Shown: in pieces, positions 1 to 32,000 of the stretch
How the letters are laid out: the number at the start of each line of letters is the position of its first letter
Position numbering within the stretch: position 1 is the first letter of the stretch
NCBI GenBank assembly: GCA_015256915.3
Contig: CP076101.2
Location: forward strand, 1-32,000
Source of the DNA: Candidatus Saccharimonas sp.
Lineage (GTDB): Bacteria > Patescibacteriota > Saccharimonadia > Saccharimonadales > Saccharimonadaceae
Direction of reading: 5' to 3'
Length of the DNA: 32,000 nucleotides
The notes under the pieces: generated by a model
Told to the model about the DNA's origin: nothing
Database searches by the model: none
What the model saw: the letters and a program-made list of their open reading frames with translations, nothing else
Program-made: the position numbers and the translations under genes

Positions 1-1359
1 ATGAATGAGTTGTGGAAAAATATCTTAGCTGAACTCGAAATGGATCCTAAAATTCAAGGTGCGAATTTTAAGACTTGGTTTGCTGACACGCAACTTCTAT
101 CTTTAGAAAATGATCATGCAATTGTTGGTGCTAAAAATTCTTTCATAACTAACACTATCAAGAAAAAATATATTGAACATATTAAAAAAGCTTTTCGAAA
201 CAATGGTAAAAATCCCGAAGTTATTTCTTTTGAGGTTATTTCTACAAAAAAGCTTAAAAAACAAGCCGAAGAAATCCCGGCACCTTCTCTAAAAAAACCT
301 TCTATTGAAGATTTAATCAAAAAGAAAACTGAAAAAGCTAAACATTCTAGTGGTTTGAATAAAGATTATACTTTCGAAAATTTCATCGTTGGTGGCTCAA
401 ATGAATTAGCATATTTTGTTAGTCAAAATGTTGCAGAAAATCCTGGTAAAAAATATAATCCACTTTATTTTTATGGTGATTCTGGGCTTGGTAAAACGCA
501 CTTAATGCAAGCGATCGGAAACGCAATTGAAGAAAAGCATCCAGAAATGACTGTTCTTTATATTACAATCGAGAATTTTTATCGTGATTTTTTGGAAAAT
601 GTACGCTCAAAAAAGCAAGGCTATGCCGATAAATATCGAAATGTCGATGTTTTAATTGTTGATGATATTCAGTTTATTTATGGAAAAGATAAAACTCAAG
701 AGGAATTTTTTCATACATTTAATGAACTTCATCGCGTAAATAAACAAATAATTCTTTCAAGTGATCGTGCGCCTTCTAGTATTCCAACTTTAACAGATAG
801 GCTAAAAAGTCGTTTCGAAAGTGGAATGATGGTTGATATTCAACTACCGGATTTCGAAACTCGCCAAAGTATTGTTGAAGCTCGCGCTGAACACGAAAAA
901 GTTAAACTTGAACCAGAAGTTTCAGAATTTATCGCTGAAAATTATCGTACAAATATTCGAGAAATTATTGGAGCAGTTACTCAACTGATTGCAATGGCAG
1001 AACTTAGAAACATTAAGCCAAGTCTCGAGCTTGCACAAGGTTTAATTCAAAACAGCCGGCCAACAAGACCAAATCACTTAAATTCAAAAAAAATTATTGA
1101 TAAAACCGCTAAATATTTCGGGGTTTCGAAAGAAGATATTTTAAGTAAATCTCGGCAAAAAGATATTAATCATGCTCGTCAAACAGCCTGCTATTTGATG
1201 AAGTATGAGCTAAAAATGAGTTTTCCACAAATCGGTAAAGAATTTTCACGAGATCATTCGACCATTATGAATGGAGTTTCGAAAATTGAAAAAAGTATTA
1301 AATTAGATGCCGAAATTCGTTCACAAATTGAAGGATTACGAGATTTAATTTATGAATAG
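1..1359 (+). CDS. dnaA: Chromosomal replication initiator protein DnaA
   Basis: 452 aa ORF with AAA+ Walker A (GDSGLGKTHL), Walker B (VLIVDDIQF) and a C-terminal DnaA-box-binding domain (RQTACYLMK...FSRDHSTIMNG). Canonical dnaA-dnaN-recF order. The window starts at its ATG. Confidence 0.97.
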   Translation: MNELWKNILAELEMDPKIQGANFKTWFADTQLLSLENDHAIVGAKNSFITNTIKKKYIEHIKKAFRNNGKNPEVISFEVISTKKLKKQAEEIPAPSLKKPSIEDLIKKKTEKAKHSSGLNKDYTFENFIVGGSNELAYFVSQNVAENPGKKYNPLYFYGDSGLGKTHLMQAIGNAIEEKHPEMTVLYITIENFYRDFLENVRSKKQGYADKYRNVDVLIVDDIQFIYGKDKTQEEFFHTFNELHRVNKQIILSSDRAPSSIPTLTDRLKSRFESGMMVDIQLPDFETRQSIVEARAEHEKVKLEPEVSEFIAENYRTNIREIIGAVTQLIAMAELRNIKPSLELAQGLIQNSRPTRPNHLNSKKIIDKTAKYFGVSKEDILSKSRQKDINHARQTACYLMKYELKMSFPQIGKEFSRDHSTIMNGVSKIEKSIKLDAEIRSQIEGLRDLIYE

Positions 1360-1382
1360 AGCTATAAAAGCTCTATTTTTAT
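1356..1382 (+). terminator. Rho-independent terminator-like hairpin after dnaA
   Basis: ATAGAGC (1356-1362) pairs with GCTCTAT (1370-1376), 7 nt loop, followed by TTTTTAT. The stem overlaps the dnaA TAG stop. Confidence 0.6.
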
Positions 1383-1858
1383 ATCTGTTAATTTGACAAT
1401 TATTTTGGTTTAGTTTATAAAAAGCGAACAGTTATTTTTGTTCGCTTTTGACTTTTTAAAATTATATTTTATTTATTTGCTATAAAAATACATATTTCTC
1501 CCTCCACTCATCTTGCAAAATATTATTTTTATTTCTTTATTATATTTGACATTATTTCTATAATATTTTAATAAAATGTTGAAAGCTTGTGGAAAAATAG
1601 CTAATTTGTTGAGTGAAAGTTATTTAAATCTTACCGAAAAAATCACCAAAGTTTTACACAGGTTGGTTGTGCATATTTTCGAAAGCTTAAAATTATGGAA
1701 AAGTTGTTATTTTTCCACAAAGTTTTTCAGAAAGTTTTACTTTGATTTTCCACACAAAAAATGGTATAATTTTAAGTAGTGAAAGCTTGGTTTTCCACAG
1801 TTTCCACAATACCTATTATTATAATTAACACTTTTTAAGAAAAAGGATTTAAATTTTT
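1383..1858. other. oriC-like replication origin (dnaA-dnaN spacer with DnaA boxes and an AT-rich segment)
   Basis: Exact TTTTCCACA boxes (one mismatch to TTATCCACA) at 1711-1719, 1746-1754 and 1791-1799, and inverted (TGTGGAAAA) at 1588-1596. Degenerate boxes at 1652-1660 (TTTTACACA), 1694-1702 (TATGGAAAA) and 1800-1808 (GTTTCCACA). Very AT-rich stretch at about 1450-1575. 10 bp hairpin AAAAGCGAAC/GTTCGCTTTT at 1420-1449. Confidence 0.75.
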
Positions 1859-4022: not shown

Positions 4023-4694
4023 TTAATGAAGACTGCAAGTTGGATCTATGAAATCAACTTTATATTTTTTGAAAATATTCTTTTCTTTAGATTCAAGCCA
4101 ATTTGTTGCTAAATCTTTGTAAAAATCATAGTTCGAACTATTACATTTACTGAATATTCTAACCGATATGTCTTTGACTTCTGTTTTATCTTTCGCATCC
4201 AGATTGTAAGTTATTGAAAAGCCTGTAGGTAATGATGTTTTTGTTGAGTTTGTGTATGGTAAATGTTTAACTATAGGGTGTTTTTCGGTCAATATCTTCA
4301 TTGTTTCTGTTATTTTTGCATAACCAGCACCACTTCTAATTATATCATCTTTCTCATGTTCGTTATACCAGGTTCCGTTTGGATCATTTTGAGCTAAAGC
4401 TAATGAAATATTTGTTTTTTGACCAGATTTAATTTCGAACTCTTTCGAGGCACTTTCGAATCCATCCTTTGATACCTCAACTTTATATTTGCCTGGCGTT
4501 ATTGTATGGGTTCCGTTTTGGATTTTTTTACCATTAATTGTTATATTTGAACTTTCTGGCGCAATACTGAGTAATAATTTACCGCAATAAATATCAGACC
4601 AAATCCACCAGCCTATAATTACTAACGATATTGTTCCAAAAATGGCCAAAACAGAATAAATTTTAACTTTTGTAGAATTATCAATATTTTGCAT
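4023..4694 (-). CDS. Membrane-anchored PEGA-domain-like protein (last gene of the T4SS-like operon)
   Basis: 223 aa with an N-terminal TM helix (IYSVLAIFGTISLVIIGWWIW), then a PEGA-like beta motif (ITINGKKIQNGTHTITPGKYKVEVSKDGFESASKEFEI). Starts 3 nt after the upstream gene's stop. Confidence 0.55.
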   Translation of the reverse strand: MQNIDNSTKVKIYSVLAIFGTISLVIIGWWIWSDIYCGKLLLSIAPESSNITINGKKIQNGTHTITPGKYKVEVSKDGFESASKEFEIKSGQKTNISLALAQNDPNGTWYNEHEKDDIIRSGAGYAKITETMKILTEKHPIVKHLPYTNSTKTSLPTGFSITYNLDAKDKTEVKDISVRIFSKCNSSNYDFYKDLATNWLESKEKNIFKKYKVDFIDPTCSLH

Positions 4695-4697
4695 ATT

Positions 4698-6353
4698 TTA
4701 ACCTTTCCATCGCCAAACTTCAACTTCGCCGAGACTTTCCATAATCTGAAGATTCATTGGCTCAATAACGCCAGTTGTTCTACTGTGTCCAGCATTTGCA
4801 ACTTTATCTTCACCATTAACCTGAACATAGAATTCTATGTGAGCTGCAGGTCCACCACCAGTTCCTGATGATATAATATCGCCTGGCTTCATATTGCTTG
4901 TGCTTCCATTATAAGGGATTTTTTCATATTTATCTGGGTTACTGCGCATATATTGAACAAGATTTACAACGCCACAACAATGCTTAGCATATTCTGGATC
5001 GACAGTTGTACTCATAACCATAGAAACGAAAGCATCACAACTCATACCTTTTTGAACATATGGTTCACCATAATTAATTAAGCCAGTTGCACGCAAGGCT
5101 TCCAGCTGCTTATCTGTCACTTCTCCAGCATAAGCAGCTGCTTTTTCTGATTCTGGGCGGGCAAGTTCCATTGCTCTATCTACGATTGTCGCATTTCCAA
5201 GTTTTCCTCCTGAAGACGAGCTACAGCTTCCTGATGAATTTGAAGAGCTATTTCCATCATTTGCAATTTCTTCTTTAAGGAATTTTACATAAGCTTCTTG
5301 ACCTTCTGTACTATGATGAACTCCATCTGCTGCATAAAGTTTATCTCTACCACCATTCTTTTCAACATAACTCTTCCAATCTAGAATCTTCACTTCGTTG
5401 TGTCTAGATGTGAAAGCTGAAATTTTTTGGTTCACTACATTATAATCAACATTTTGGTTTTTTGAAAAGTTATTTACCCAATAAATTTTCTTGCCTTTAA
5501 GCTTGCCGATCAAAGCTTCTGCAGCATTTTCATCAAAGTTATCGTTAGTTCCTAAGTTAATAACGACCGTATCATGAATTGTATTTGGTAATTTTGATGT
5601 TGCAGCAGCAATTGAATCACCAACTGTTGCAGATACATTCGAACCACTGAAGGTTGATGATAATTTTTCTTGAACACCGACTGTAATTGAATCTCCAATG
5701 AAAGTTATAGGCCCTGAAGCTTTTCCTCTACCGCTAGAACCTTTTCCTGCGAACTGTGAAAGCATTTTGTTTCCAACTTCTTCACCTTCTTTAATACGGC
5801 CAGGTCGTAGATCTTCTCTTGGTCTTTCGAAGCCATTAGTCCAAGCTATGGTAGCCTCTCGGACTGTCGATGCTGATTTCACCATATTAAGAGCTCTATT
5901 CTCTGGGCCTTCTAACTCTTGCCATAAGAAATTTAGCTGAACGCCAAGGTCAGATACTGGTTTCCCTTTTTCTTTAGCATAATTTTCGAGATTTGTTCGC
6001 CGCCCAAATGACCACTGGGCAATACCGTAGCCGATTCCGTTTCCAGCTTCAACTAGATCTGGTTGGAAATGGTTAGATTCACCCCAGAGACTTCCCATAA
6101 TACCAGCAGTTTGCTCATCTGTTAATCCTTTTGATTTAAAAAAGTTCCAAATCTTTTCAGCATTATCATTACCCTCAAGATTTATATCTGCCATATTACC
6201 GCTAGATGCTGGAGCACAATCCTCGCCTGCATCATAATAGATTATATCATTCAGTTTATAAAAACGTTCATCAAATTCAGCCCTCGCAACATTTGAAAGA
6301 GTGGAAGCTAAAATCAATGAGATTAAGATAATTGATGATATTTTTTTATACAT
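4698..6353 (-). CDS. Secreted three-module cell-wall hydrolase (phage-tail-lysozyme-like + SGNH/GDSL hydrolase + NlpC/P60- or CHAP-like cysteine peptidase)
   Basis: 551 aa with a signal peptide (ILISLILASTLSNVARA). Lysozyme-like block GIMGSLWGESNHF...GYGIAQWSFGRRTNL...QLNFLWQEL. SGNH blocks FIGDSITVG, NLGTNDN and DGVHHS. C-terminal Cys/His pair (GMSCDAFV...AAHIEFYV). Its ATG overlaps the upstream stop (TAATG). Confidence 0.7.
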   Translation of the reverse strand: MYKKISSIILISLILASTLSNVARAEFDERFYKLNDIIYYDAGEDCAPASSGNMADINLEGNDNAEKIWNFFKSKGLTDEQTAGIMGSLWGESNHFQPDLVEAGNGIGYGIAQWSFGRRTNLENYAKEKGKPVSDLGVQLNFLWQELEGPENRALNMVKSASTVREATIAWTNGFERPREDLRPGRIKEGEEVGNKMLSQFAGKGSSGRGKASGPITFIGDSITVGVQEKLSSTFSGSNVSATVGDSIAAATSKLPNTIHDTVVINLGTNDNFDENAAEALIGKLKGKKIYWVNNFSKNQNVDYNVVNQKISAFTSRHNEVKILDWKSYVEKNGGRDKLYAADGVHHSTEGQEAYVKFLKEEIANDGNSSSNSSGSCSSSSGGKLGNATIVDRAMELARPESEKAAAYAGEVTDKQLEALRATGLINYGEPYVQKGMSCDAFVSMVMSTTVDPEYAKHCCGVVNLVQYMRSNPDKYEKIPYNGSTSNMKPGDIISSGTGGGPAAHIEFYVQVNGEDKVANAGHSRTTGVIEPMNLQIMESLGEVEVWRWKG

Positions 6354-9300
6354 TATGTGTCCTGTTTAATTAAATCTGGTGGATAGAAAGATGCCGATGT
6401 TGATGGTATTGCGGAACCCTTCGAAAGTTCGAAATGTAAGTGTGATCCAGATGAACAGCCATAGTTTCCAATAGTGCCAATATTCTGACCTTTTTTGACT
6501 TTCTCTCCAGTTTTAACCGAGTGTGAATCCATGTGCCAATAGAAAGAATATAAATCTCCTTTATGTTTAATAATTACGGCATGTGGGCCGCCCATCATAT
6601 CAGCTGTTCCATATGTACAACCATTGTATGGGGCTACATCAAAACCACCATTAACAACCTCACCATCAGCTACAGCATGCACTTGCGCTCCGTGTGTCCA
6701 CCCTTTTTCTTCATTGGCGAAATCAATAGCTGGGTGGTTTTGTCGAACTGGTGTATTAAAACCTTGGCCATCTGATACTCCCTGTATCTGTCCATTTTTA
6801 ACTTTAGTGTTTTTTAGCGGCCAAATAAATTCACCACTTAATTTTGATAGTTCTGGATCTATTCCTCCTTTTGAAGTGGATGAGTTATTATTTCCACGAC
6901 TTCCTCCGCTTGAGTCTGGCTTAAATTCTTCATTCATTCCCATCTCTGTTCGAAGATCAGTTAAAAATAGTGAATACCAGTTTGCTTTAGGATTTTTTTC
7001 AGTATTACAAATTCCACCACGAGTTTCATCGTCGTCATCTTCTGATGTTCCAATTGGTGATTTTCGGTTGAAACAATATTTATCATATTTTTTCAGGTCA
7101 CCACTCATTTTGAAGGTATCTAGTAGATTATTTGTTTCGCTACTATTATCTTTCTCTACAATATCACCCCATTCTTTAAGTTTATTAACAACTTCTTCAG
7201 TATCGGTTTCAGCGATACTCATATCAATACCAGTATAAACATTGCAAAAAATATCGGTTGCAGCACCAGTTTCTGTGATTGATTTATCTTCACAAGTTTC
7301 CATATTGGCCGCAAAATTTGCACTATTAGCTGCACTTGCTCCTGGCGTAATTGATGCGAATGATCTCTGTGCTCCACTAATTATAGATGGTAATAAACCT
7401 TTAATTGAACCTAAAGTCCCAACATAGGGCATCATATTACTTACAATTGAACCCAAGAAAGTATGCCGTGTAGTTGGATCAAATGGACTGTGGGTTTTTC
7501 GAATATCTTCAGCATTTTCAGCAATTTGGCGGTCGGTTTCTTGGCGAAATGCAACTGCTTGAGATTTAGTTAAAACTCCACCACTTCCAGCCATTGAATT
7601 CTTTGACATTAATGCTGCAGATCCGGACATTATAGCGTTTCCAAAATTCTCTCCAGTTGTTGAGTTATTTAGGATTGTGCTGGTTAAAGCTTCACTTACA
7701 TATTTAGAAACTACACCCATGGCTTGATCTTTTAGTATTTCAACGGCAACAGAAAGAGCCAATCCTAATGCTACTCCCCATGCTGCCACTTTTACAACTT
7801 CACCGATGCATCCTAGAAAACCAGTACCCATACATTTGAGTATTGTTAGCGATATTTGAGCTATACCTACTGCTACAGTAGCTATACCTGCAACTTTACA
7901 GCTTTGTCGTATAAACCAACCCACCATTCCTGTAGTTAATGTATTCATTAAACTTGCGAACCATCCAGTAATTCCAACCTGGTAGTCCTTTGCTGAATCA
8001 TCTAGTTTCGAAATGCGATCATCATAAGCTACTGCTCGCCAACCTTGTGATTCAGTGGCGCTTTTAATACGATCGTTATTTGATGTAGAATCTGCAAAAA
8101 AAGCAAAAGCATTTTTTAGTCTTGAAGTATTAGAATTTTTACTGTCAGGATTTTTATTTTCTTGAGAATCTTTTCTATTAGCAATCCCCATTAAATTATT
8201 GCCTTGCGCTGTAACTTCTTGCTGGGTTGCTTCTCCAGCTTTAATTTTTGATGCCATTGAGAGGAAAGACAAACCAAATTGAGCTAACACTTCCACTTTA
8301 GCTATTTTAGCAACGCTCCAACCCATTGATACTAATGCATAAACTCCACAAACTTTATCTACCGCATTTAAACCATTCAAAGCACTACTTGCTCCTTCAA
8401 GTATTTCCAACCCCATAGCTGCTTTTTCAGATACACTTTGTGCACCTTTCTTGAGCTTATCTTTATATGTTTTTAGTTTTTCTTTAACTTTTCTAGTTCC
8501 TTTATCACCTTTTTGTGCTTTATTTTTACCTTCATCGTCAACATCTTCTTTGTCACCTGATAATTTTTTAGAATCAGTTTCCCCATCTTTACTATGGTCG
8601 TTTGCTGTTTTCTTTATATCCTCATCAATTTCTTCTTCGGTTTTACCTTTATTGTCTTTTTTGGCTTTTCGAAAGTTAAACCAACCCTTGAGCTTTTGCC
8701 AAGATTTATCAAGAAAAGATGCAAAACGACCGCTAAAACCACGGCGAAAAGCTTGCCGCACATCTGGGTTTTTAGTTAAAATATTTTTAATATCCTTAGA
8801 AGAATTTTTTATTTCAATATTTTTCCCATCTTTAATGTAGGTTAGTTTTGAAATTTTTTTCCTTCCAAATAAGCTTTCCTTCTCATCTAAATCAACTTTA
8901 AAACCAGCTTTTTCAAGATTTTTGATGTTTCGGTCTGTTACTTTTGACATTCGGCAAACTAAGCCGGCTGGACTACAATTAGTACCTTTTATTTTTAGCT
9001 TCATCACTTTAACAGAGCGATTATTCATACTTGTTGAGGCGGAATTGAGTTTTTCGGTAATAATTTCTTGAATATGAACTGGTGCAAGTGAAGCAATTCC
9101 TGTTGAAATTACAAAAATAAATGCACCACCACCACCAAGAAGGCCGCCAGTTGCCGCCATTGCTCCTTTATTTTTGAAGAATGATTTTGCACGGTTTTTC
9201 CAACCGCCTCCTGCTGAGTTTGCTGCGTTTCGAGATTTATGAGTTCCACCGCCGCTCACATTGTTTTGCCAGCCACCAGATTGGACTGGTTTTTGATCTT

Positions 9301-9520
9301 TCGAAAGTGTTTCTGAGTCGCTAATGTCGGAATTTGAAGTAGTAGAAGTTGAAGAATTTTCGGCATTCGCCAAAGCAGACGGATTATAACCGTCATTTCC
9401 TCGAATAACTTCAGCGTTTCCCCATCTACTTTTTGCTCGTTCGAGCGCAGATTGATTCGAATCACTCAAGTCGCTAAAATCAAGATTTTCATCTCTTTCG
9501 AAATCTCTAGCTGCTCCCAT
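6353..9520 (-). CDS. Large polytopic membrane protein with a C-terminal M23 (LytM-type) peptidase domain
   Basis: 1055 aa. Ser/Asn-rich N-terminus, Gly-rich TM segment, Lys/Asp/Glu-rich linker, several central TM helices. C-terminal M23 motifs HPAIDFA (HxxxD) and SGSHLHFEL (HxH). Confidence 0.75.
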   Translation of the reverse strand: MGAARDFERDENLDFSDLSDSNQSALERAKSRWGNAEVIRGNDGYNPSALANAENSSTSTTSNSDISDSETLSKDQKPVQSGGWQNNVSGGGTHKSRNAANSAGGGWKNRAKSFFKNKGAMAATGGLLGGGGAFIFVISTGIASLAPVHIQEIITEKLNSASTSMNNRSVKVMKLKIKGTNCSPAGLVCRMSKVTDRNIKNLEKAGFKVDLDEKESLFGRKKISKLTYIKDGKNIEIKNSSKDIKNILTKNPDVRQAFRRGFSGRFASFLDKSWQKLKGWFNFRKAKKDNKGKTEEEIDEDIKKTANDHSKDGETDSKKLSGDKEDVDDEGKNKAQKGDKGTRKVKEKLKTYKDKLKKGAQSVSEKAAMGLEILEGASSALNGLNAVDKVCGVYALVSMGWSVAKIAKVEVLAQFGLSFLSMASKIKAGEATQQEVTAQGNNLMGIANRKDSQENKNPDSKNSNTSRLKNAFAFFADSTSNNDRIKSATESQGWRAVAYDDRISKLDDSAKDYQVGITGWFASLMNTLTTGMVGWFIRQSCKVAGIATVAVGIAQISLTILKCMGTGFLGCIGEVVKVAAWGVALGLALSVAVEILKDQAMGVVSKYVSEALTSTILNNSTTGENFGNAIMSGSAALMSKNSMAGSGGVLTKSQAVAFRQETDRQIAENAEDIRKTHSPFDPTTRHTFLGSIVSNMMPYVGTLGSIKGLLPSIISGAQRSFASITPGASAANSANFAANMETCEDKSITETGAATDIFCNVYTGIDMSIAETDTEEVVNKLKEWGDIVEKDNSSETNNLLDTFKMSGDLKKYDKYCFNRKSPIGTSEDDDDETRGGICNTEKNPKANWYSLFLTDLRTEMGMNEEFKPDSSGGSRGNNNSSTSKGGIDPELSKLSGEFIWPLKNTKVKNGQIQGVSDGQGFNTPVRQNHPAIDFANEEKGWTHGAQVHAVADGEVVNGGFDVAPYNGCTYGTADMMGGPHAVIIKHKGDLYSFYWHMDSHSVKTGEKVKKGQNIGTIGNYGCSSGSHLHFELSKGSAIPSTSASFYPPDLIKQDT

Positions 9521-9583
9521 TTTATTCCTAAAACTCTATAATTTATAAATTAATTTTACCACATTTACGCTTGTGCTTCAAGC

Positions 9584-11443: not shown

Positions 11444-11445
11444 AA

Positions 11446-12222: not shown

Positions 12223-12223
12223 A

Positions 12224-13654: not shown

Positions 13655-13758
13655 TCTTTATTTGCCCACTTCTCCTTATTTCAATAATATTAATTTTAAC
13701 ATATTTTCGAAAAAAAATAAAGCTTAAAAATAAAATAGGCAAAACATTTAGATTCTGC

Positions 13759-18728: not shown

Positions 18729-18786
18729 TCATAAGACTTCAAACTTAATTTTGTTTAGTTGAATGGATAACTAATAATTAAAATAC

Positions 18787-18814
18787 TTGCAAAATAGTAA
18801 AAATTTGATATAAT
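18787..18814 (+). promoter_or_regulatory. Sigma70-like promoter for pilin paralog 6
   Basis: TTGCAA (18787-18792), 16 nt spacer ending in TGa, then TATAAT (18809-18814), about 40 nt upstream of the ATG at 18854. Confidence 0.5.
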
Positions 18815-18853
18815 TTAAGTATATATAATTTAAGAAAGGAAATGTAATTTAAA

Positions 18854-19958: not shown

Positions 19959-20612
19959 ATGAAGAAAAGCATATACGAAATAATTTTAAATTCTTTTGCG
20001 CCAGATGATTGCTATTTTTGCCAAAAATTGGGTGAACCTATTTGCAAAAAATGCCTTAAATCAAGGTGTAATTTTGGTAATTCCCTTTCTCGCTCGAATA
20101 GTATTATTTCGAAAGAATTTTATCTTTCGAAAAGGTCTGGAGAACTTCAAAAAATAGTTGATGAATTTAAATTTCAAAGCAAGAGACAAAATAATTATTA
20201 TCTCGCGAAACTTTTATCTGATTTTCTGCTTTCGAATAGCGAATTTATTAGTAATCGTGAAAAATTGGTTTTAATTCCAGTTCCAACACTTTCGAATCAT
20301 ATTCGTGAACGTGGTTTAGATCATACTGAACTTTTGGCTCGCCAGCTTGCAAGGAATTTGAAAATTAAAAAATCGACATTAATTAAAAGAATATCAAAAA
20401 CCACTCAACGTGGCAAAAATTTTAAAACGCGACAAATTCAGGCAAAAAGTAGTTATGAATTTATAGGAGAAAAGCTTTTGGAAGGTAAAATTTATGTAAT
20501 TTTTGATGACATTCGCACAACTGGTGCAACTTTAGACTCTATTGCGAAAATTCTTCTCCAGAGTGGTGCTAAAGAGGTCTGGGCATTTTATTTACTTCAG
20601 CAAGAAAAATAA
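19959..20612 (+). CDS. comFC: ComF-family phosphoribosyltransferase-fold competence protein
   Basis: 217 aa. N-terminal Cys-rich zinc-finger-like motif (CYFCQKLGEPICKKC), the LIPVPTLSNHIRERGLDHTELLA block and a PRTase motif (IYVIFDDIRTTGATL). Confidence 0.8.
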   Translation: MKKSIYEIILNSFAPDDCYFCQKLGEPICKKCLKSRCNFGNSLSRSNSIISKEFYLSKRSGELQKIVDEFKFQSKRQNNYYLAKLLSDFLLSNSEFISNREKLVLIPVPTLSNHIRERGLDHTELLARQLARNLKIKKSTLIKRISKTTQRGKNFKTRQIQAKSSYEFIGEKLLEGKIYVIFDDIRTTGATLDSIAKILLQSGAKEVWAFYLLQQEK

Positions 20613-20653: not shown

Positions 20654-20743
20654 GGAGAGGTGGCCGAGTGGTTGAAGGCACCGGTCTTGAAAACCGGCAT
20701 GCGGTAAAACGTATCGAGGGTTCGAATCCCTCCTTCTCCGCCA
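20654..20743 (+). tRNA. tRNA-Ser (anticodon UGA), CCA encoded
   Basis: Hand-folded cloverleaf. Acceptor GGAGAGG/CTTCTCC, anticodon stem CCGGT/ACCGG with loop cuUGAaa, long variable arm, T arm GAGGG-TTCGAAT-CCCTC, discriminator G and CCA. Confidence 0.9.
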
Positions 20744-24226: not shown

Positions 24227-26089
24227 TTATATATTAGCTAGCTTTGATTTGTAAAATTCTAACTCATCGTTAATTCTCATAACATAAAAAATGACTATTT
24301 GGAGCAACTCTAAGTAATTTTTTTGATGTTCCTCTTCACTTTTATAAGAAAATTTTCCATGAGAGAATTTATTTCGAATTTTCAACCCATTACCATATTT
24401 TTTATCATCCAAAATATAAGATAAATAATTACTTTCATATTCAGAAAAAAGCTTATCTGAATATTCACAATACCCTTTCTTACAAAGGTCTTCTGCAATG
24501 TCTAGTATCAATTTATCTTTATAGTATAGGCAATACGTACCTGATTTCCATAATTTATTCAAAATGTTAATTTCTTGGAAATTTGAAAACTTTATTACAT
24601 CGTTTGATAGTTTTAAAAAATTCTTTTCTATTAGAACATTTATTTGTCTTACCTGATAATCATCAAAATCTGTAATCTTCACACCTTCTTTTATATGTTT
24701 GAAGAAGGTTTTATGTTCTTTTTTCGATGAAATTAAGCTAAGTGGACTTTGGTCATAAAAAAGCGCAGAGAACAATGCAGAATTATCAGGAGTATTGTTC
24801 AATTTGATAAATTTTTTCTCATTGAATGATTTTAATGAAGCATAAGAGGAGGCTTTAGATTTAATCTCTAATAAATCTTGGTTGATTTCCCTATGTCTAA
24901 AAAAAAGTTCATATTGGTCTAGGATACTATCCATCTCACAGATTATGGATTTCCCTCTTTCATAATAAGAAGATTCTTTATTGGAAGCGTGGAAGTGAAA
25001 TCCTTTTATATTCAATTTAGTTTCTAAATAAATGTTGAAGTACCAATTAATAATCTCCTCAATATCAATATCATTTTTCTTTAGATACTCAAAATATGCA
25101 TAAAATAATAAACCATAAGAATTTTTTAAATGAGAATCGTAGTCTTCGAAATGAGCATTTGATTTTGGGGAAAAGAAACGAGTGAAGCTGAATGTTTCTT
25201 CATTCGCAACTAGCCAAGGCAATCCCGTTTCATGATTAAAGAAGCCAAGTAAATAAAAATTATTTAATAATGTCGGAAAATCATGATGTTCATCTAGTAT
25301 AATTTTATTTAAAAGAATACCATTCTCAATAGGCTTACATAATTTATCAGAATCTAAAGGCTTGATGACAACTGATATAGAGTAATGTATCCCTTCATTA
25401 GTTTCAAAATGTTTTTCCCAAAATTCCTTACTTTTTCTTTTAGCTAAAAGCTTAACCTCATCATCAAACTCATATTTGCTTAATTTTTTATAATCAACAA
25501 TTGATTGTAAATAATTTGGGTTAATATTATCTGTCTGACAATATTCTATTGCTAGATTATTTATCTCTTCATTTGTGATACCTAACTTAATGTATAAACC
25601 ATTAGAATCTATGAATTTTCCTGATTGATGATTCAAGAAAAATTCTATATTTCTAGACAGAGAGAGAAAATTTTCTTTGATAACTTGCGGAAATAGGTCA
25701 ATCAGTTGTGTAACATTTTTAAGATTTATTGTCTGGATATTGTATTTTTTTATATATGATTCAAACTGACTAACATCATCTTTATTAATTTTTTCTAAGT
25801 CTAGTACTAACTCCCAGAAGACATCTTTATAAAAAACATCAATACTATCATAGTCTATTTCAAAAATGGTAATTGGGAAATTCGCGGATAAATCGTTATG
25901 AAACTTTCTAATTAGATATTTGAATTTAGAAAATTGATTTTCTTTTTTAATTAATTTCAGGATTAAATAGGTTTCTATTAAATTATTAATTTCAGTCGAT
26001 GGCTGATATGCTTTAATGTAGTTCAGAGCTATATCGTATTGGTGTGGTTCTATTACATTGTTAGGAGCATGAAATCTTTTATGTTGCAT
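24227..26089 (-). CDS. Uncharacterised 620 aa protein with a C-terminal HEPN-like Rx4H (RNKFSH) motif, downstream partner of the Type IIL RM gene
   Basis: Uninterrupted 620 aa ORF. AAGGA ribosome-binding site about 9 nt upstream of the ATG. 78 nt downstream of, and co-oriented with, the RM gene. Very AT-rich (sampled lines about 22-25% GC). The peptide GLKIRNKFSHG (R572-H577, nt 24359-24376) followed by a helical hydrophobic segment resembles the HEPN catalytic signature. No Walker A motif. Confidence 0.5.
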   Translation of the reverse strand: MQHKRFHAPNNVIEPHQYDIALNYIKAYQPSTEINNLIETYLILKLIKKENQFSKFKYLIRKFHNDLSANFPITIFEIDYDSIDVFYKDVFWELVLDLEKINKDDVSQFESYIKKYNIQTINLKNVTQLIDLFPQVIKENFLSLSRNIEFFLNHQSGKFIDSNGLYIKLGITNEEINNLAIEYCQTDNINPNYLQSIVDYKKLSKYEFDDEVKLLAKRKSKEFWEKHFETNEGIHYSISVVIKPLDSDKLCKPIENGILLNKIILDEHHDFPTLLNNFYLLGFFNHETGLPWLVANEETFSFTRFFSPKSNAHFEDYDSHLKNSYGLLFYAYFEYLKKNDIDIEEIINWYFNIYLETKLNIKGFHFHASNKESSYYERGKSIICEMDSILDQYELFFRHREINQDLLEIKSKASSYASLKSFNEKKFIKLNNTPDNSALFSALFYDQSPLSLISSKKEHKTFFKHIKEGVKITDFDDYQVRQINVLIEKNFLKLSNDVIKFSNFQEINILNKLWKSGTYCLYYKDKLILDIAEDLCKKGYCEYSDKLFSEYESNYLSYILDDKKYGNGLKIRNKFSHGKFSYKSEEEHQKNYLELLQIVIFYVMRINDELEFYKSKLANI

Positions 26090-26167
26090 ATCTGTGATAT
26101 CCTTCTTAAATTTGCGCGTTTCTATGTGATGCTTAAAATAATTGAGTATATTTTGAAGAATACCGTA

Positions 26168-28972
26168 TTAATTTTTAGTTGACTCTTCATACATCTCAAA
26201 TAATCTTGCTACTGTTTCACTTTTTGTTAACCAAGTCTTCTTACCATCGACAACTTTCGTCATGCCATAAGCTTCCATGACGGCTTTGTCGTTAGCTTGG
26301 TGTGCTTTTCTGAGTTCGACTGGCATGGTCAATTCATCATAGAGGTCAGCTAGCGAACTTTCTGGATAGAGCGCACGTGCATCGAGAATTGCTTGAGCAG
26401 TTTTAGAGATTTTACTCTTCTGCTCCTCAGTCAATTCAGGCCAAGGGAAATTATTATAAACAATGTCTTTTGAATATCTGTAATCAGATTTCAAACGACC
26501 AGATACTGTCCTCATCCATGCCATATGGACATTTGATGTCAATATTCCTAAATCAAGTAAATCTGCATCAGGCACTATCAAAGTTCCCATAACTGGAATT
26601 GTTTTATCATCTAAAAAACCAATTGGAACATATTTTCTTCTTTCAGAAGAAACACAAGGAATAATTAGATATTTATCAGGGTTTAATTGCTCTCTAAATA
26701 GTGTTGGTGTATTTGCTAATTTTAATGATTCAGAAGTATTCGCATTGATACGAGCTTCTCTACATTTTTCAACTCTATCCAAAACTATCGGCATTGAACG
26801 GAGTTCTTTAGGTGTGATTCCTACAAGCCACAAGCAATAGCGTTCTTTATTTTGAATAAATTCCTTTGCACCAACCATTCGCTTAATCCACTTTGCAGAT
26901 TCAGGAGATGATTTGATAAAGTCGTCATACTCCGTGGCTTCAATTTTTAGATGATTATAGTCACATGGCTTATTTGGAGCAATCATTGGCTTAGCACCAC
27001 TAATTGGCTTATTTCTACTTTCTATAAAGATATTTTCAGCTTCAATCTGATAAGCATTTATATTACTTACTTTAGATTCACTTCCATTATCATAAATAAC
27101 TTTATTCGTTGTGACCGATGTAGAACTGAATCCTACAATGATACAATGAACATGAGCTTTTAAGTTTGCATCATTATTCCAAATAAAGGATTTATAGACA
27201 AAATCAATTTCATTACCCATATCAAAGATTAGTGGCCATAGAATAGAGATTTGCTCTCCTTGCATGATTGAGTTGGTCGATACAAATGCGCTCTTGATAC
27301 TTGTACCTTCCATGAATTTAGAAGCTAACAGGTACCAACTAGCAACAAAGTCTAATTTTCTATATTTCTTAGTGTAGGGAGAAAATACGACATCCATATC
27401 TTTCTTTTGTTCAGGTGTTGAATATTTTGAGCCAACAAAAGGCGGATTCCCAATAATATAACTCAGCCTATCTTTAGGTACAATTGTTTCCCAATCAATC
27501 TTTAAAGCATTTCCTTCAACAATGTTTGTATAGGACTTAAGTGGCAAGAAATCAATATTCGCAAACACAATATCTTTAGTTTCTTCCAGCATCTGACTTT
27601 CTGCAATCCAGAGAGCCGTTTTAGCAACAGAAACCGCAAAGTCATTGATCTCGATACCATAAAATTGGTTCAGTTGGACTTTGACAAGTTCTTGTCCGAC
27701 GTCAAGCGCAATAGTGTCCCCCATATAGAGCTTAATGGCTTCATTTTCTAAGCGTCTAAGAGAAACGTATGTTTCGGTTAAGAAATTTCCAGAACCACAA
27801 GCCGGGTCAAAGAATACTAGACTCGCTAGTTTTGATTGAAACTGTTTTGCTTTTTGTTCAACGATTTTAGGCTGCTTAAATTGACGAATCTCATTCAATT
27901 CATCTTTTAACTCATCTAAGAAGAGTGGATCAATAACTTTATGGATATTCTCAATAGAGGTATAATGCATCCCGCCACTACGACGTGTTTCGGGGTTGAG
28001 AGTTGACTCAAATACTGCACCAAAAATAGTAGGGCTGATTTCTGACCAGTCGAAACTAGAAGAAGCATGCTCCAAAATTAACTCACGTAGTTCATCGGTA
28101 AAATTAGGGATTTCCAAATTATTCTCGGCAAACATTCCTCCATTAACATAGGGGAAAGCAAGAAGTTCCGTATCCAAATACGGATCACGTTCTTTAATTG
28201 GCGTATCTAGTATAGAAAAGAGGTCAATTAAAGCACGCCTAAAATCACGACTACTAAAACGGGCAAGGTAATCATGAAACACCATGTGATGGCCAAAAAT
28301 ACCAGCATCTTCAGCATATAGACAAAATACTAATCGGACTATAAGTTGATTGATAGCATGAAGGCTTTCGGGGCTATCCGGATTAATATACTGCTTAAGA
28401 AGGCTTTCATAAATCTCACCGACAATCTCACCGGCTTCGATAGAAACCTTCATTTCACGTTCTAAGTGTTCATTAGTTTTGTCAATTAAAAATTCTAAAC
28501 GATAGGCTTCTTTATCCAAATCAGCAAGTTTAATGACTTTAGGTTCGCCGTTTGGTTGCTCCATATCATAAACATAGAACTCTTTAAAATTACAAGTCAC
28601 AATCCACCGTGGACGTTGAGAATATGGCAAGTTAGCAGAATATCGTTTAGCCTGTTGAAACGGTGTAAGGTAAGTTCCATCAGACTGTTTTATCGCCTTA
28701 TTAAGGTCTTTGTTTGAACCTTTTTGTTCAATTAATACTTTTGTTTTATCAATAAAGCCATCTATAAAACTAGTATGGTCAAGCATCACTGTATCTTCAA
28801 ATGTTATATACTCACTTGGGTTTTCTACTCCATAAACAGATTGAAGTAAGTCTAACCAGAAAGACTGACTATCTTGCCTTTCGTTTCCTCTATTTCCCCA
28901 GCGTTTAATAAATGCTTTAGCTTGCTTTTTTTGTTCCCGGATATTATTCACTTTGTTCTTTCTAACTACCAC
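26168..28972 (-). CDS. MmeI-family Type IIL (Type IIG-like) fused restriction endonuclease / N6-adenine DNA methyltransferase
   Basis: 934 aa single polypeptide. N-terminal nuclease-like D...EXK arrangement (SFIDGFIDKTKVLIEQKG). Gamma-class MTase motif I (FFDPACGSGNFL) and motif IV (IIGNPPFVGS). Long C-terminal target-recognition region. Apparent GTG start 4 nt after the pgi stop. Confidence 0.85.
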   Translation of the reverse strand: MVVRKNKVNNIREQKKQAKAFIKRWGNRGNERQDSQSFWLDLLQSVYGVENPSEYITFEDTVMLDHTSFIDGFIDKTKVLIEQKGSNKDLNKAIKQSDGTYLTPFQQAKRYSANLPYSQRPRWIVTCNFKEFYVYDMEQPNGEPKVIKLADLDKEAYRLEFLIDKTNEHLEREMKVSIEAGEIVGEIYESLLKQYINPDSPESLHAINQLIVRLVFCLYAEDAGIFGHHMVFHDYLARFSSRDFRRALIDLFSILDTPIKERDPYLDTELLAFPYVNGGMFAENNLEIPNFTDELRELILEHASSSFDWSEISPTIFGAVFESTLNPETRRSGGMHYTSIENIHKVIDPLFLDELKDELNEIRQFKQPKIVEQKAKQFQSKLASLVFFDPACGSGNFLTETYVSLRRLENEAIKLYMGDTIALDVGQELVKVQLNQFYGIEINDFAVSVAKTALWIAESQMLEETKDIVFANIDFLPLKSYTNIVEGNALKIDWETIVPKDRLSYIIGNPPFVGSKYSTPEQKKDMDVVFSPYTKKYRKLDFVASWYLLASKFMEGTSIKSAFVSTNSIMQGEQISILWPLIFDMGNEIDFVYKSFIWNNDANLKAHVHCIIVGFSSTSVTTNKVIYDNGSESKVSNINAYQIEAENIFIESRNKPISGAKPMIAPNKPCDYNHLKIEATEYDDFIKSSPESAKWIKRMVGAKEFIQNKERYCLWLVGITPKELRSMPIVLDRVEKCREARINANTSESLKLANTPTLFREQLNPDKYLIIPCVSSERRKYVPIGFLDDKTIPVMGTLIVPDADLLDLGILTSNVHMAWMRTVSGRLKSDYRYSKDIVYNNFPWPELTEEQKSKISKTAQAILDARALYPESSLADLYDELTMPVELRKAHQANDKAVMEAYGMTKVVDGKKTWLTKSETVARLFEMYEESTKN

Positions 28973-28976
28973 ATTA

Positions 28977-30020
28977 TTATTTCACCAATTCAATCTTTAA
29001 TTTTTCAATTAACTCCACTGGTGTTGGGTTGACATTATTCAAAATTGCAAGATAAATACTTACGAAATCTGCTAAAATCGAACCCCAGAAAATTTGTTCA
29101 AGATAGGTTGAACCTTTAAGCTCGATATTTCGTGCAGCCGGGCGTTTTCCACTTAAAAGCCTATCTGATATTTCGAAACGCTTTTGAACTCGCGGATGGT
29201 CTAAATTACTTCGAAGATTAAAAATTGCAAAGAGTTTTTCAACTGGGTGCGAGCTCCAACCGATAAATTCATTATGATTGAATTCTGGATATTCGTTATA
29301 GAAGCTGACATTTTTAGCATTTTCATTCCAAGAAATCTTCCATTTATAAGCTAGTGGTGAAAAATCATTCGAACTTAGAAAAACTGCACTTCGCCCTGCC
29401 GAATAAAGCGCTAATTGTTTGGCATAGTTTCTCTCGGTTGAGATATTCGCCACCCAAGATTCGCTTTCTTTTCGCAAAAAATCAGCATAATGCTCAATCT
29501 CTTCGTGTTTTTCGTTCGAAATAATTCCAAAATTCACCAAAATTTTAGTTAAAGCTCTAAAATTATAAATTACCGCCATTCGTGGTTGAAGGCCTGTTGG
29601 CAATTTAACATGAGCAATCTGATTTTTGCGGGCAATTTCTTCCATTTTGCCGTGCGAAGAAACTGTGGCAACTTGTGCACCAATTTCAATTGCTTGAGTT
29701 AACGCTGAAATTGACTCTTCTGTATTTCCGGAATATGAGCTTGCGATCACTAAAGTATTTTTCGAAACACTTTTTGGTAAATTATAATTTCGAATAATTT
29801 CGATTGGTAAAGTTATTTCATTTTCGAGCCATTTTTTTACAATTAAACCGGCTAAAGCTGAGCCACCCATTCCTGTAATAACAATATTTTTGATTTCACG
29901 ACCATCATTTTCTGGTGAAATAACTTCAACTTGAAAAAGCGCCTGTTTCCACTGCTCGCTAGCGACTAAAAGCGCATTTTGCGGGTCGCGCTGAACTAAT
30001 AAATTAAAATTATCTAACAT
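28977..30020 (-). CDS. pgi: Bifunctional phosphoglucose/phosphomannose isomerase family (SIS domain)
   Basis: 347 aa. SIS motifs (ITGMGGSALAG, VIASSYSGNTEE) and a C-terminal domain typical of the archaeal/bacterial PGI/PMI family. Confidence 0.8.
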   Translation of the reverse strand: MLDNFNLLVQRDPQNALLVASEQWKQALFQVEVISPENDGREIKNIVITGMGGSALAGLIVKKWLENEITLPIEIIRNYNLPKSVSKNTLVIASSYSGNTEESISALTQAIEIGAQVATVSSHGKMEEIARKNQIAHVKLPTGLQPRMAVIYNFRALTKILVNFGIISNEKHEEIEHYADFLRKESESWVANISTERNYAKQLALYSAGRSAVFLSSNDFSPLAYKWKISWNENAKNVSFYNEYPEFNHNEFIGWSSHPVEKLFAIFNLRSNLDHPRVQKRFEISDRLLSGKRPAARNIELKGSTYLEQIFWGSILADFVSIYLAILNNVNPTPVELIEKLKIELVK

Positions 30021-30678: not shown

Positions 30679-30708
30679 AAAATAGGCCCTAAGTTCAGAG
30701 CCTATTTT
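30679..30708 (-). terminator. Terminator hairpin downstream of the surface-protein gene
   Basis: AAAATAGGC (30679-30687) pairs with GCCTATTTT (30700-30708), a 9 bp stem. On the minus strand it follows the stop at 30721 and ends in a T-rich tract. Confidence 0.6.
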
Positions 30709-30720
30709 GCTTTTTCAAAA

Positions 30721-32000
30721 TTAGATTTTTTTCGAATTTCTCTTCAATTTTTTAGCGAAGAATGCAATTATTGGTGTGAAAATTACAGTAACCAAACCAA
30801 TTAAAACTAATATAGTATTGCTGTCTTGTTGGTTTTGCTTTTCGCGTAAATATCCAGTTTCTGGAGAATTTAAATGTTGCTTTGCAATTTCCTCATCACG
30901 TTTTTTGATAGCTTCTGAAAGTTTGTCTACTTCAATTTGAGCTTCTTTTTGCTTGATAGAATTTTTAATTTCTTGCAATTTTTCGCTTAACTCTTGGCGT
31001 TTTTTCTCATCTTTAACTTTCGAAATTAAATTCTCAATATTTTCAATATCAACAGCTGGAAGCTCATTTTTCTTCGTTTTGTTATCTTCAATGATTTTTT
31101 CAATTTCTTTTAGCTTATCTTCAGATGATTTTTGGCGCTCACTTTCTGCTTTTTTAGCTTTTTCAATAGCCGATTTCAAATCTTCTTCTGCTTTTTTAAT
31201 TTCTTCAAAAGTTGGATTATCTTCTTTTTGAACTTCTTTAGCTTTATCTGCTTCAGTTTTAACTTCATCTTTCAGCCATTTTTGTGAATCTTCGAAATCT
31301 TTAATTTGTGAATTTAAGGCTGTTTTATCAGCTCGTAAACCGTTCAAAGCGCTTTCAAGTTCATTAATTGCTTCTAATATTTCACTCTCTGAAGCAAGAT
31401 CTTCGGTTGAATTTTTTATCGCCTCGGCAGTTTTAAGTTGGCTTGAAATATTTAAGTTTGACGCTGCATCTACAACTTCTTGCAACTGTGCTAAAGTTTC
31501 CTTAGAAAAATTATTAAGATTTTTTAAATTAGCAATTTTGTCTAAAGTTTGCTCCAACTTTTTGGTATTTTTATTATAGCGTTCAGCAATTTTCTCTAGC
31601 TCTTTAAGATTTGCTTGTTTTGCTACAGGGTCAAGAATTTTATCATTTTCATTCATGACATCTTTAAAATCGGTTATATATTCAATCATTTTCTTTAATT
31701 CGTTAATTGCATTTGAAATATCAGTTTTGCGCTCATTTTCTAGAGCTACGATTTCGGCAATTTTATTGTTTAAAGAATCTGCTGCGTTTTTAACGTCATC
31801 GTTGGTTATTCCTAAAGGCTGCGTTTCAGTACGCTTAACCTCAGTTAATAAATTAGCAGGGATTGCATTTTTAATATAATCTGGCTGTTTTTCGAAATTT
31901 TCAAGAGCTTTTTTAGCTGGCTCACGAGAAGCGAAAGCAGTTAAAAGCCTAAATTGAGCGGTCGTGGTATTTCCGTATTTATTTGTAGCCTTAACTGTAA
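30721..32000 (-). CDS. Coiled-coil surface protein, 5'-truncated by the window edge, with an LPXTG-like (SPETG) C-terminal anchor
   Basis: The frame stays open upstream of the listed ATG (31689) to nt 31998 in my translation (TVKATNKYGNTTTAQFRLL...ELKKMIE), so the gene probably starts beyond the window. Lys/Glu-rich heptad-like sequence. The C-terminus has SPETG, a hydrophobic helix and a basic tail (KKLKRNSKKI). Confidence 0.6.
   Translation of the reverse strand, partial: TVKATNKYGNTTTAQFRLLTAFASREPAKKALENFEKQPDYIKNAIPANLLTEVKRTETQPLGITNDDVKNAADSLNNKIAEIVALENERKTDISNAINELKKMIEYITDFKDVMNENDKILDPVAKQANLKELEKIAERYNKNTKKLEQTLDKIANLKNLNNFSKETLAQLQEVVDAASNLNISSQLKTAEAIKNSTEDLASESEILEAINELESALNGLRADKTALNSQIKDFEDSQKWLKDEVKTEADKAKEVQKEDNPTFEEIKKAEEDLKSAIEKAKKAESERQKSSEDKLKEIEKIIEDNKTKKNELPAVDIENIENLISKVKDEKKRQELSEKLQEIKNSIKQKEAQIEVDKLSEAIKKRDEEIAKQHLNSPETGYLREKQNQQDSNTILVLIGLVTVIFTPIIAFFAKKLKRNSKKI

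Follow-up and report, generated by a model that had tools for sequence, protein, structure and literature searches.

The first 32,000 bp of contig CP076101.2 of Candidatus Saccharimonas sp. (assembly GCA_015256915.3), a stretch that we refer to as the window, are unusually rich in the palindromic hexamer TTCGAA. Our analysis of this DNA and of related loci has shown that a clade-wide process favours TTCGAA at all six of its positions, in all sequence classes, and strongly enough to change proteins. The resident DNA of one clade among the oral G6 Saccharibacteria holds approximately 3 TTCGAA per kb, in all reading frames as well as in spacers. We rate the motif as a palindrome like the highly iterated palindromes (HIPs) of cyanobacteria that occurs in a new phylum and has a different, shorter and AT-rich word. 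The portion covered comprises ~52 kb, which is ~8% of one genome of ~650 kb, plus one chromosomal neighbourhood of its relatives.

Abundance of TTCGAA in the window

Exact counting in the window (33.8% GC; A 31%, T 35%, C 17%, G 17%) gave 95 copies of TTCGAA and 35 copies of the octamer TTTCGAAA, with mononucleotide expectations of 10.9 and ~1.2. An earlier reading of the same sequence, the original prediction, had put the counts at about 95 and 35 and the expectations at about 11 and 1, all of which agree with these values. Only ATTTTT (100 copies) is more frequent among all 4096 hexamers, with AATTTT level at 95. Among the 64 palindromic hexamers TTCGAA stands at 8.7 fold over the mononucleotide expectation, the next well-populated ones being TTGCAA and AAGCTT at 2.7 fold, and it is the most over-represented palindrome in the window when judged against an order 1 Markov model (z=17.6). 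Simulated Markov expectations are 18.9±4.0 at order 1, 33.0±6.0 at order 2, 47.8±7.0 at order 3 and 82±10 at order 4, and under the maximal-order model the ratio of observed to expected (O/E) is 1.15. The latter, proposed from the outset as a check, comes formally close to 1. That comparison is circular, however, and the two highest-order nulls are uninformative, because 95 of 124 TTCGA words and 95 of 113 TCGAA words (77-84%) are the motif itself.

The companion check, in which codons are shuffled, does reveal an excess. Synonymous codons were shuffled 500 times within each of the 26 open reading frames (ORFs) that were called, which cover 90.6% of the window, while keeping both protein and codon usage. 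The shuffles contained 28.8±4.4 TTCGAA (maximum 41) versus 88 observed coding sites, and 5.5±2.2 octamers versus 32 observed. Each reading frame exceeds its own expectation by 2.2-4.2 fold, with 21, 18 and 49 sites in frames 0, 1 and 2 versus 9.7, 7.3 and 11.8 in the shuffles, and the 88 sites are spread over 22 of the 26 ORFs. This null is a conservative one because the motif itself has inflated the usage of TCG, CGA and TTC. Of 37 Phe-Glu dipeptides, 21 are encoded by TTCGAA, with TTC making up only 30% of Phe codons, and Ser-(Lys/Asn) that is preceded by a T-ending codon uses TCG in 49 of 97 cases, with TCG making up 13% of Ser codons.

Seven sites in the window are non-coding. Three of these are located in tRNA T-loops, as had been noticed before, namely those of tRNA-Ser(TGA) at 20721..20726 on the + strand, tRNA-Arg(GCG) at 21651 and tRNA-Ser(CGA) at 23297; they represent universal tRNA sequence and are outside the phenomenon. 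The others, which are strandless, lie at 1678..1683 in the dnaA-dnaN spacer, at 13706..13711 between a PrgI-family gene and a 901-aa ORF, and at 18294 and 31891. The dnaA-dnaN spacer (1360-1858) is likely the replication origin oriC; it has 23% GC and contains five DnaA-box-like words (TTWTNCACA or its complement) at 1588-1791. Non-coding DNA masked for tRNAs (2.4 kb) has 3 sites versus 0.8 expected, and the non-coding DNA of each ingroup relative has 2-4 sites versus 0.5-0.8 expected, with 0 in four outgroup loci. Because every frame beats the synonymous shuffle and non-coding DNA exhibits an excess, over-representation at the DNA level rather than at the peptide level is supported. This is what had been argued from occurrences of the motif in all three frames, in genes on both strands and in non-coding DNA, and the excess is indeed found on either strand. 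Overall, the over-representation amounts to 8.7 fold over mononucleotide composition, 5 fold over order 1, 3 fold over the synonymous shuffle and ~15 fold over the density in sister lineages. As with HIP-type palindromes, there is an excess over compositional, Markov and codon-aware nulls that extends to both coding and non-coding DNA, and it is the opposite of the under-representation that marks avoided restriction targets. One-base variants had been described as rare, which holds for those that keep the CG (2-14 copies each) but not for the CpG-transition variants TTTGAA (45 copies) and TTCAAA (39 copies), which the description had not listed.

The 95 hexamers, which as palindromes have no strand, start at positions 194, 373, 814, 853, 1125, 1278, 1678, 2402, 2716, 2992, 3306, 3467, 3638, 3923, 4132, 4434, 4455, 5638, 5826, 6420, 6428, 6949, 7498, 8007, 8668, 9300, 9456, 9497, 9756, 9855, 9879, 10195, 10615, 10896, 10939, 11484, 11693, 12270, 12569, 12627, 13188, 13706, 13961, 14075, 14293, 14336, 14423, 14864, 15227, 15331, 15686, 15962, 16040, 16340, 16398, 16924, 17079, 17270, 17522, 17663, 17932, 18055, 18294, 18411, 20108, 20126, 20231, 20291, 20721, 20897, 21218, 21323, 21488, 21651, 22058, 22162, 22358, 22508, 22531, 22990, 23017, 23297, 23505, 24373, 25145, 29172, 29210, 29368, 29515, 29761, 29789, 30731, 31019, 31291 and 31891. 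The 35 copies of TTTCGAAA start at 193, 372, 813, 852, 1124, 1277, 1677, 2401, 3466, 3637, 3922, 8006, 8667, 9299, 9496, 10895, 11692, 12568, 13705, 14292, 14335, 15961, 16039, 16397, 16923, 17662, 18410, 20107, 20125, 22057, 22357, 29171, 29760, 31018 and 31890. The octamer starts given in the original prediction are right except for 20135, which should be 20125, and lacked eleven (8667, 9496, 11692, 12568, 16039, 16397, 17662, 18410, 22357, 29760 and 31018). The flanks of the hexamer contain no conserved sequence except for T at -1 and A at +1; T at -1 is present at 57% of the window sites and at 53-68% of those in relatives, compared with 39-42% before TTC in other contexts. Since only this soft T/A preference is found beyond the hexamer, the unit is TTCGAA, and the octamer that had been described along with it is a product of the flank preference. 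Placement of the sites is Poisson-like (7 gaps of <30 bp versus ~8 expected) apart from one long gap, and a search of the window for regular spacing or clustering found none apart from an accessory island described below. The longest motif-free stretch, 25151..29171, separates the sites at 25145 and 29172 (4027 bp); at the local rate of 3.4/kb, a gap this long anywhere in the window has P ~1e-4.

Distribution and turnover of sites among relatives

The nearest DnaA relatives of the window are Saccharibacteria of clade G6 (metagenome-assembled genomes, or MAGs, of Candidatus Saccharimonas / Nanogingivalaceae), complete genomes of which, rotated to a dnaA start, have been published (PMC8354532, PMC8386444). 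We compared 79 related loci by DnaA identity and palindrome excess. The 23 loci with at least 62% DnaA identity contain 2.2-3.9 TTCGAA/kb, and TTCGAA is the top over-represented palindrome in each one, while all 55 loci at 59% DnaA identity or below contain <0.5 TTCGAA/kb. Thus the motif is specific to one lineage and persists across that clade, as is the case for HIP-type palindromes, and the lineage specificity that had been suggested is supported; conservation of the enrichment in relatives had been proposed as a check. The excess recurs in independent short-read MAGs that stem from several studies. Set apart from these loci is a 3.8-kb fragment of a G6 relative, Candidatus Nanogingivalis gingivitcus (L022; NZ_PRLK01000017.1, 1-3797) that has 62% DnaA identity and 0 TTCGAA. 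This fragment has 10 copies of the palindrome TAGCTA versus ~1.2 expected at its 27% GC, four of them within its first 130 bp; TAGCTA may be an alternate iterated palindrome, for which a 3.8-kb sequence is too short to judge.

In a neighbour-joining tree of DnaA, DnaN and RecF, L021, which is the most distant carrier, branches as the sister of the group that contains the window, and the non-carriers L023 and L024 fall outside both, a topology that fits with a single origin being sufficient for the distribution of TTCGAA. A patchy or independent origin in L021, which the raw DnaA identities had suggested, is ruled out by this three-protein tree. L021 (JBAQCW010000010.1, an environmental Candidatus Nanogingivalis sp.) has TCGA at 13.4/kb (O/E 3.8) and a CpG O/E of 1.66, and is also rich in CTCGAA, ATCGAA and GTCGAA, with TTCGAA still its top context; the exact word that is recognised may vary a little from one sub-lineage to another. 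In the TT_AA context, carriers have a ratio N(xyCGzw)/N(xyTGzw+xyCAzw) of 1.08-1.13, where it ranks 1-2 among 256 contexts, versus 0.15-0.21 in non-carriers, where it ranks 239-256. We also considered whether every Saccharibacteria lineage has a palindrome of its own, and rejected this as only the ingroup and L070 show a signal among 61 sequences of at least 12 kb. L070 (JAQBRQ010000008.1) is the sole non-carrier locus with a notable palindrome excess, GAGCTC, which is present 12 times versus 2.9 expected at order 2.

Conservation of individual sites was followed in eleven aligned carrier loci of 21 kb each, which are from separate species-level MAGs and have 75-97% pairwise identity. Pairwise conservation of motif hexamers is 0.50-0.69, compared with 0.25-0.47 for the average hexamer, 0.15-0.35 for other CG-containing hexamers and 0.2-0.5 for hexamers 6-24 bp either side of the motif. 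This is about double the level in the flanks or in the average hexamer, and conservation of sites above control words is the pattern used to recognise HIP-type palindromes (Xu et al. 2018). Within sites, the TT and AA positions are the most stable at 0.89-0.92 versus ~0.80 in the flanks, and the central C (0.73) and G (0.80) are the least stable. Of the 127 motif columns, only 12 are common to all eleven genomes and 36 occur in a single genome. The 128 one-off alternative states are chiefly TTTGAA (46) and TTCAAA (27), followed by TTAGAA (13) and TTCTAA (9), and the outer-position variants add up to 29.

The direction of turnover also differs between the motif and other CpG contexts. In the two of four comparisons that are significant (p = 0.003-0.05), loss by CpG transition is 0.27-0.28 at the motif versus 0.43-0.47 in other CpG contexts, and gain by CpG transition is 0.32-0.40 versus 0.18-0.19. 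When gains and losses were polarised among eight genomes that are ~94% identical, using L016 as the outgroup, 14 of 19 single-base motif losses were singletons while all 8 motif gains were carried by 3-7 of the 8 genomes (p=3e-4); this trend of shared versus private changes is reversed in other CpG contexts. Proteins are affected as well. In dnaA, dnaN and recF, 16 of 36 motif columns (~44%) match residues found only in carriers (e.g. Gln/Arg, Ile/Phe and Asn/Glu exchanges), and Ser-Lys/Asn (S[KN]) dipeptides are several-fold commoner in carrier DnaN and RecF. The motif thus not only sits in coding sequence but also alters it, which is the co-evolution with the proteome that is expected of an uptake sequence.

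Imported DNA and gene content of the window

Accessory genes provide an internal control. A complete MmeI-family Type IIL restriction-modification gene at 26168..28972 on the - strand (934 aa, matching five of five MmeI Pfam domains) contains 0 TTCGAA versus 9.5 expected (P=7e-5) and has a GC content of 36%, a value usual for the window. Self matches aside, its best homologues have 75-80% identity to it, the named ones being proteins of Streptococcus suis, S. anginosus and S. salivarius. Because this identity spans phyla while DnaA is only ~60% identical within the family, the gene is apparently a recent cross-phylum import from streptococci. It occupies the same site in all 8 contigs listed of the 18 that have an identical phosphoglucose isomerase protein, and streptococcal imports into G6 have been noted earlier (PMC8386444). 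The MmeI-family methylase was also considered as a cause of the motif. It was rejected, given its 75-80% identity to streptococcal proteins, the absence of any closer homologue among >100 top matches and the lack of a site within it; an import from streptococci that is confined to one species cannot account for a motif found throughout the clade.

Adjoining this gene is an unannotated 620-aa ORF (24227..26089, - strand) with 2 sites (1.07/kb), 27% GC and no family match, which probably belongs to the same accessory island. Approximately 5 kb past the window end, a gene for a 1264-aa YobI-type ATPase (L080, 784-4578) has 0.79 TTCGAA/kb and adjoins motif-rich housekeeping genes such as that for a Mur ligase (4.2/kb); it is probably an accessory or defence gene of foreign origin. 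Together these three genes have 5 sites versus 28.8 expected (P=6e-8). Housekeeping genes have 4-6 TTCGAA/kb and secretion-system genes 2.6-4.8/kb, a normal density by which the latter are old residents. The motif therefore marks DNA by the length of its stay in the lineage, and resident DNA has 3.4 copies/kb, which exceeds the at least ~1 copy/kb that is typical of uptake sequences, while recently acquired DNA has few. With sites that outlast their flanks, losses that are private, gains that are shared, proteins that are altered and recent imports that lack the motif, the pattern points to a fixation bias favouring TTCGAA, through either selection or biased transmission, rather than to codon usage or mutational bias alone. 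The likeness to HIP1 and to uptake sequences that was drawn in the original prediction is upheld by the same conservation of sites above background, motif-free imports and reshaped proteins.

The window starts with dnaA-dnaN-recF, directly beside which is a type IV secretion cluster (4023-19270). This cluster holds genes for a PEGA-domain protein, a phage-tail-lysozyme/GDSL protein, a 1055-aa M23 peptidase, a VirB4/TraG-like ATPase, the PrgI-family protein and the 901-aa unannotated ORF, as well as six tandem paralogues of type IV secretion system pilin at 16553-19270. Since its TTCGAA density is normal, the cluster has long been part of the chromosome and is no recently acquired conjugative element. 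Other genes in the window encode hsp20, three tRNAs, a polysaccharide deacetylase and phosphoglucose isomerase. There is also a ComF-family (ComFC-like) competence gene at 19959..20612 on the + strand that has 4 motif sites (6.1/kb). It aligns over its full length with TIGR00201 comF (E=1.7e-25, below the curated cutoff) and matches the Pfam Pribosyltran and PRTase ComF-like families. A comF gene in the window had been cited in favour of an uptake role; the gene is real, but it is not specific evidence because com genes are general in Saccharibacteria (PMC10633639). In relatives, recX, recA, ruvB and ruvA are present just upstream of dnaA (10 kb inspected).

Several palindromes are under-represented in the window. 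GTATAC, TACGTA and TGTACA occur once each versus 10.9 expected from base composition, GAATTC occurs 7 times versus 22.6 (order 2), ATCGAT 3 times versus 13.1, GATC 55 times versus ~95 and CATG 41 times versus 68-100; these deficits could be a result of restriction avoidance. Some viral contigs are saturated with TTCGAA: L150 (IMGVR_UViG_3300044959_000303), L147 (IMGVR_UViG_3300044959_000237), L177 and L179 have 6-9 TTCGAA/kb over the whole fetched stretch, with parent contigs of up to ~110 kb. They have a CpG O/E of 1.7-1.9, a TpA O/E of 0.26-0.4 and long ORFs that overlap on both strands, and TTTGAA/TTCAAA are nearly absent from them (4 in L150 versus 210 TTCGAA). A link between these contigs and the G6 clade was rejected as they have no common proteins and distant dinucleotide signatures.

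Candidate explanations and known systems

The explanation that we favour, to which we assign a probability of roughly 0.4, is that TTCGAA is a clade-specific, HIP1-like "self" motif that has a recognition system and is driven by uptake or recombination. A DNA-recognition system specific to the clade, most likely consisting of a TTCGAA methyltransferase together with a reader protein, would recognise the hexamer. The machinery for natural competence and recombination would then favour motif-bearing, and probably methylated, DNA of the cell's own kind, and alleles with the site would replace alleles without it, which is the molecular drive that has been proposed for uptake sequences. More specifically, methylated TTCGAA might be what clade-G6 Saccharibacteria read as a signal for DNA uptake or recombination, a proposal that we regard as possible though somewhat unlikely. 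Among relevant precedents, natural transformation in Saccharibacteria is ComEC-dependent (PMC10633639), methylated HIP1 raises transformation of Synechococcus >100-fold (bioRxiv 10.1101/2024.09.10.611283), a role as an uptake sequence has been put forward for HIP1 (bioRxiv 10.64898/2026.06.24.733823) and TTCGAA-specific m6A methylation occurs in nature (bioRxiv 10.64898/2026.06.24.734251). The ComF-family gene of the window, the position of recA, recX and ruvAB beside the origin in relatives and the mosaic identity between lineages are in keeping with the favoured explanation as well.

A number of observations weigh against this explanation. Other than the imported MmeI-family enzyme, no methyltransferase, Vsr or reader was found in the ~52 kb inspected (the window and 10 kb up- and downstream of dnaA) of the ~650-kb genome. 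A 6-bp palindrome is poorly sequence-specific unless it is read methylated, and known uptake sequences are asymmetric and 9-12 nt long. G6 Saccharibacteria are uncultured, so that their competence would have to be assumed by analogy with other clades. The gain/loss spectrum consists of 27 events at hypermutable CpGs polarised with one outgroup, and when two concordant outgroups are used the trend is kept at counts of 5 versus 3, which is not significant. In addition, the genomes compared are MAGs of separate species and not a population sample. The mosaic identity along the alignment has two readings. L020 is 93-96% identical to L003 over most of the locus and only 62-74% identical to it, as is L016, over ~2 kb upstream of dnaA (alignment columns ~8000-10000), and L016 has a DnaN that is 99% and a DnaA that is 91% identical to those of the window. 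This mosaic could reflect recombination between lineages or chimeric MAGs, and as evidence of recombination it is only suggestive.

The strongest competitor is methylation-directed repair with no role in uptake, by Elhai's ratchet model for HIPs or by Vsr-like very-short-patch repair, which we consider improbable while still deserving serious attention. A methyltransferase of the clade would mark TTCGAA and repair that reads the mark would resolve near-site mismatches, at replication or in heteroduplexes formed by recombination, to the full site, which would accumulate as a by-product. The profile is indeed that of HIP1, being lineage-specific with conserved sites and nested words (CG within TCGA within TTCGAA within TTTCGAAA), and every alternate HIP is accompanied by a cognate methyltransferase (Elhai 2015, PMC4390886), of which, as for a Vsr gene, the ~52 kb inspected holds none. 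Turnover occurs mostly via the central CpG, with TTTGAA and TTCAAA making up 73 of 128 one-off states, gain from these two words is ~2x that in other contexts and loss is ~0.6x, and motif-free foreign DNA is compatible with slow amelioration of imports. However, the signature of a Vsr by-product is missing, as TTTGAA plus TTCAAA are present at 2.7/kb in the ingroup versus 1.3/kb in near outgroups. These product words are not depleted, for which reason a Vsr-type redistribution was rejected. Enrichment of ~4-fold extends to the whole TTYRAA family, which means that the outer positions are driven as well, and a purely replication-linked mutational bias would not skew shared versus private gains and losses. 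We also asked whether hypermutability of 5-methylcytosine would point to methylation. The cytosine of the motif does not mutate more readily than that of other CpGs, with CpG transitions at the motif being rarer than elsewhere, and there is therefore no positive sequence sign of 5-methylcytosine, which is no evidence either way.

It appears unlikely that each site is under direct selection for a cellular function that has nothing to do with gene transfer, such as binding of an abundant nucleoid or chromosome-organising protein or strand discrimination in mismatch repair every few hundred bases. Such selection would account for sites that are kept above background, losses that look mildly deleterious, a density that is alike across housekeeping genes and a soft T/A flank preference of the kind typical for protein-DNA recognition. 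However, placement is Poisson-like with no regular spacing, the finding that only 12 of 127 motif columns are common to all 11 genomes makes individual positions expendable, no candidate binding protein is known, and ~2000 sites per genome that override protein sequence would be hard to sustain without drive in an epibiont with a small population. We give still less credence to a neutral, context-specific mutational signature of the clade, caused for example by an altered polymerase or repair repertoire, that has no reader and no function. The clade-wide occurrence, the activity in non-coding DNA, the slow amelioration that foreign DNA would undergo and the broader TCGA and CpG excess of L021 are in keeping with such a signature, but it would have to shift one context of 256 from bottom to top rank, constrain all six positions, hold the TT and AA positions more stable than the flanks and produce shared gains and private losses, the reverse of other CpG contexts. 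As for an artefact of codon, dicodon or peptide usage, a repeated element or an assembly error, the concentration of 49 of 88 coding sites in frame 2 (xxT-TCG-AAx) and the maximal-order Markov ratio would agree with one, but that ratio is circular, there is no conserved flank, sites are scattered over most ORFs and the excess recurs in independent short-read MAGs. The per-frame, protein-preserving shuffles together with the non-coding excess rule out a codon or dicodon origin, and an artefact of any of these kinds is hardly credible.

If the more specific proposal, that methylated TTCGAA is a signal for uptake or recombination, is true, Patescibacteria would have their first uptake-sequence-like system, which would also be the shortest known. 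It would add an independent case for HIP-type palindromes and uptake sequences being one phenomenon, a tag of self DNA that is amplified by molecular drive. Such a tag would let an epibiont that imports DNA tell DNA of its own kind, for recombination, from that of its host or neighbours. Hyper-abundant palindromes have been studied almost only in cyanobacteria, where the function of HIP1 has been debated for ~30 years, and TTCGAA provides a second independent system in which to weigh methylation-linked repair against transformation-signal ideas. TTCGAA is cut by BstBI, a commercial enzyme. The question of methylation is answerable from public data, namely the complete G6 genomes CP072208, CP076101 and CP076102 and raw nanopore reads (SRX10387815). 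Saccharibacteria have lately become genetically tractable via natural transformation, and should the motif influence uptake, transforming DNA for the uncultured G6 clade ought to be designed with it in mind. As a sharp compositional marker, TTCGAA can furthermore serve to bin G6 genomes and to spot DNA that they have imported. We found no report of the TTCGAA motif in Saccharibacteria or elsewhere, and no paper that pairs both; methylation is unmentioned in the G6 genome papers PMC9600527 and PMC8386444, the latter of which also does not mention palindromes.

TTCGAA has features of several known systems. It shares with the RAATTY motif of Campylobacter jejuni that it is a 6-bp palindrome; Beauchamp et al. 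in 2017 reportedly found that RAATTY methylated by the lineage-specific orphan methylase CtsM marks DNA for uptake, which shows that a short palindrome can act as an uptake tag. RAATTY has not been reported as hyper-abundant, whereas for TTCGAA it is only abundance that is observed. In E. coli, very-short-patch repair by Dcm/Vsr converts T:G mismatches back to the site, such that CCWGG is enriched and CTWGG is depleted. Turnover of TTCGAA likewise occurs mostly via C-to-T neighbours; however, its deamination products are not depleted, only ratios being shifted, and the effect is far larger and constrains all six positions. The DNA uptake sequence (DUS) of Neisseria and the uptake signal sequence (USS) of Pasteurellaceae are asymmetric, 9-12 nt long and read as sequence. 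Similar to these (for the USS see PMC1626085), TTCGAA is present at no less than ~1 copy/kb in resident DNA and is scarce in recently acquired genes, is located inside genes where it shapes peptide content, occurs in a naturally competent host group, and has an accumulation that molecular drive can explain. Unlike these, it is a 6-bp palindrome with little intrinsic specificity and no pairing at terminators was seen. Because TTCGAA is not an asymmetric word of 9-12 nt, it cannot be filed as a DUS or USS.

The closest parallel is with HIP1 (GCGATCGC) and the "alternate HIPs" of cyanobacteria (Elhai 2015, PMC4390886; Xu et al. 2018, PMC5861425). Both TTCGAA and HIP1 are short palindromes that are hyper-abundant in the coding and non-coding DNA of one lineage each, both have sites conserved above matched controls and a nested word, and the function of both is now being linked to natural transformation. 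They differ in that TTCGAA is an AT-rich hexamer with a central CpG while HIP1 is a GC-rich octamer, and in that one-off variants are central in TTCGAA and at the ends in HIP1. For TTCGAA no cognate methyltransferase was found within the ~52 kb inspected, and the host is a member of the Patescibacteria, an ultrasmall epibiont whose genome measures ~0.65 Mb. The magnitude of over-representation is also lower, at 5-9 fold over composition and ~15 fold over sister lineages for TTCGAA versus 15-300 fold for HIP1, while TTCGAA is the denser of the two, at ~3/kb versus ~1/kb.

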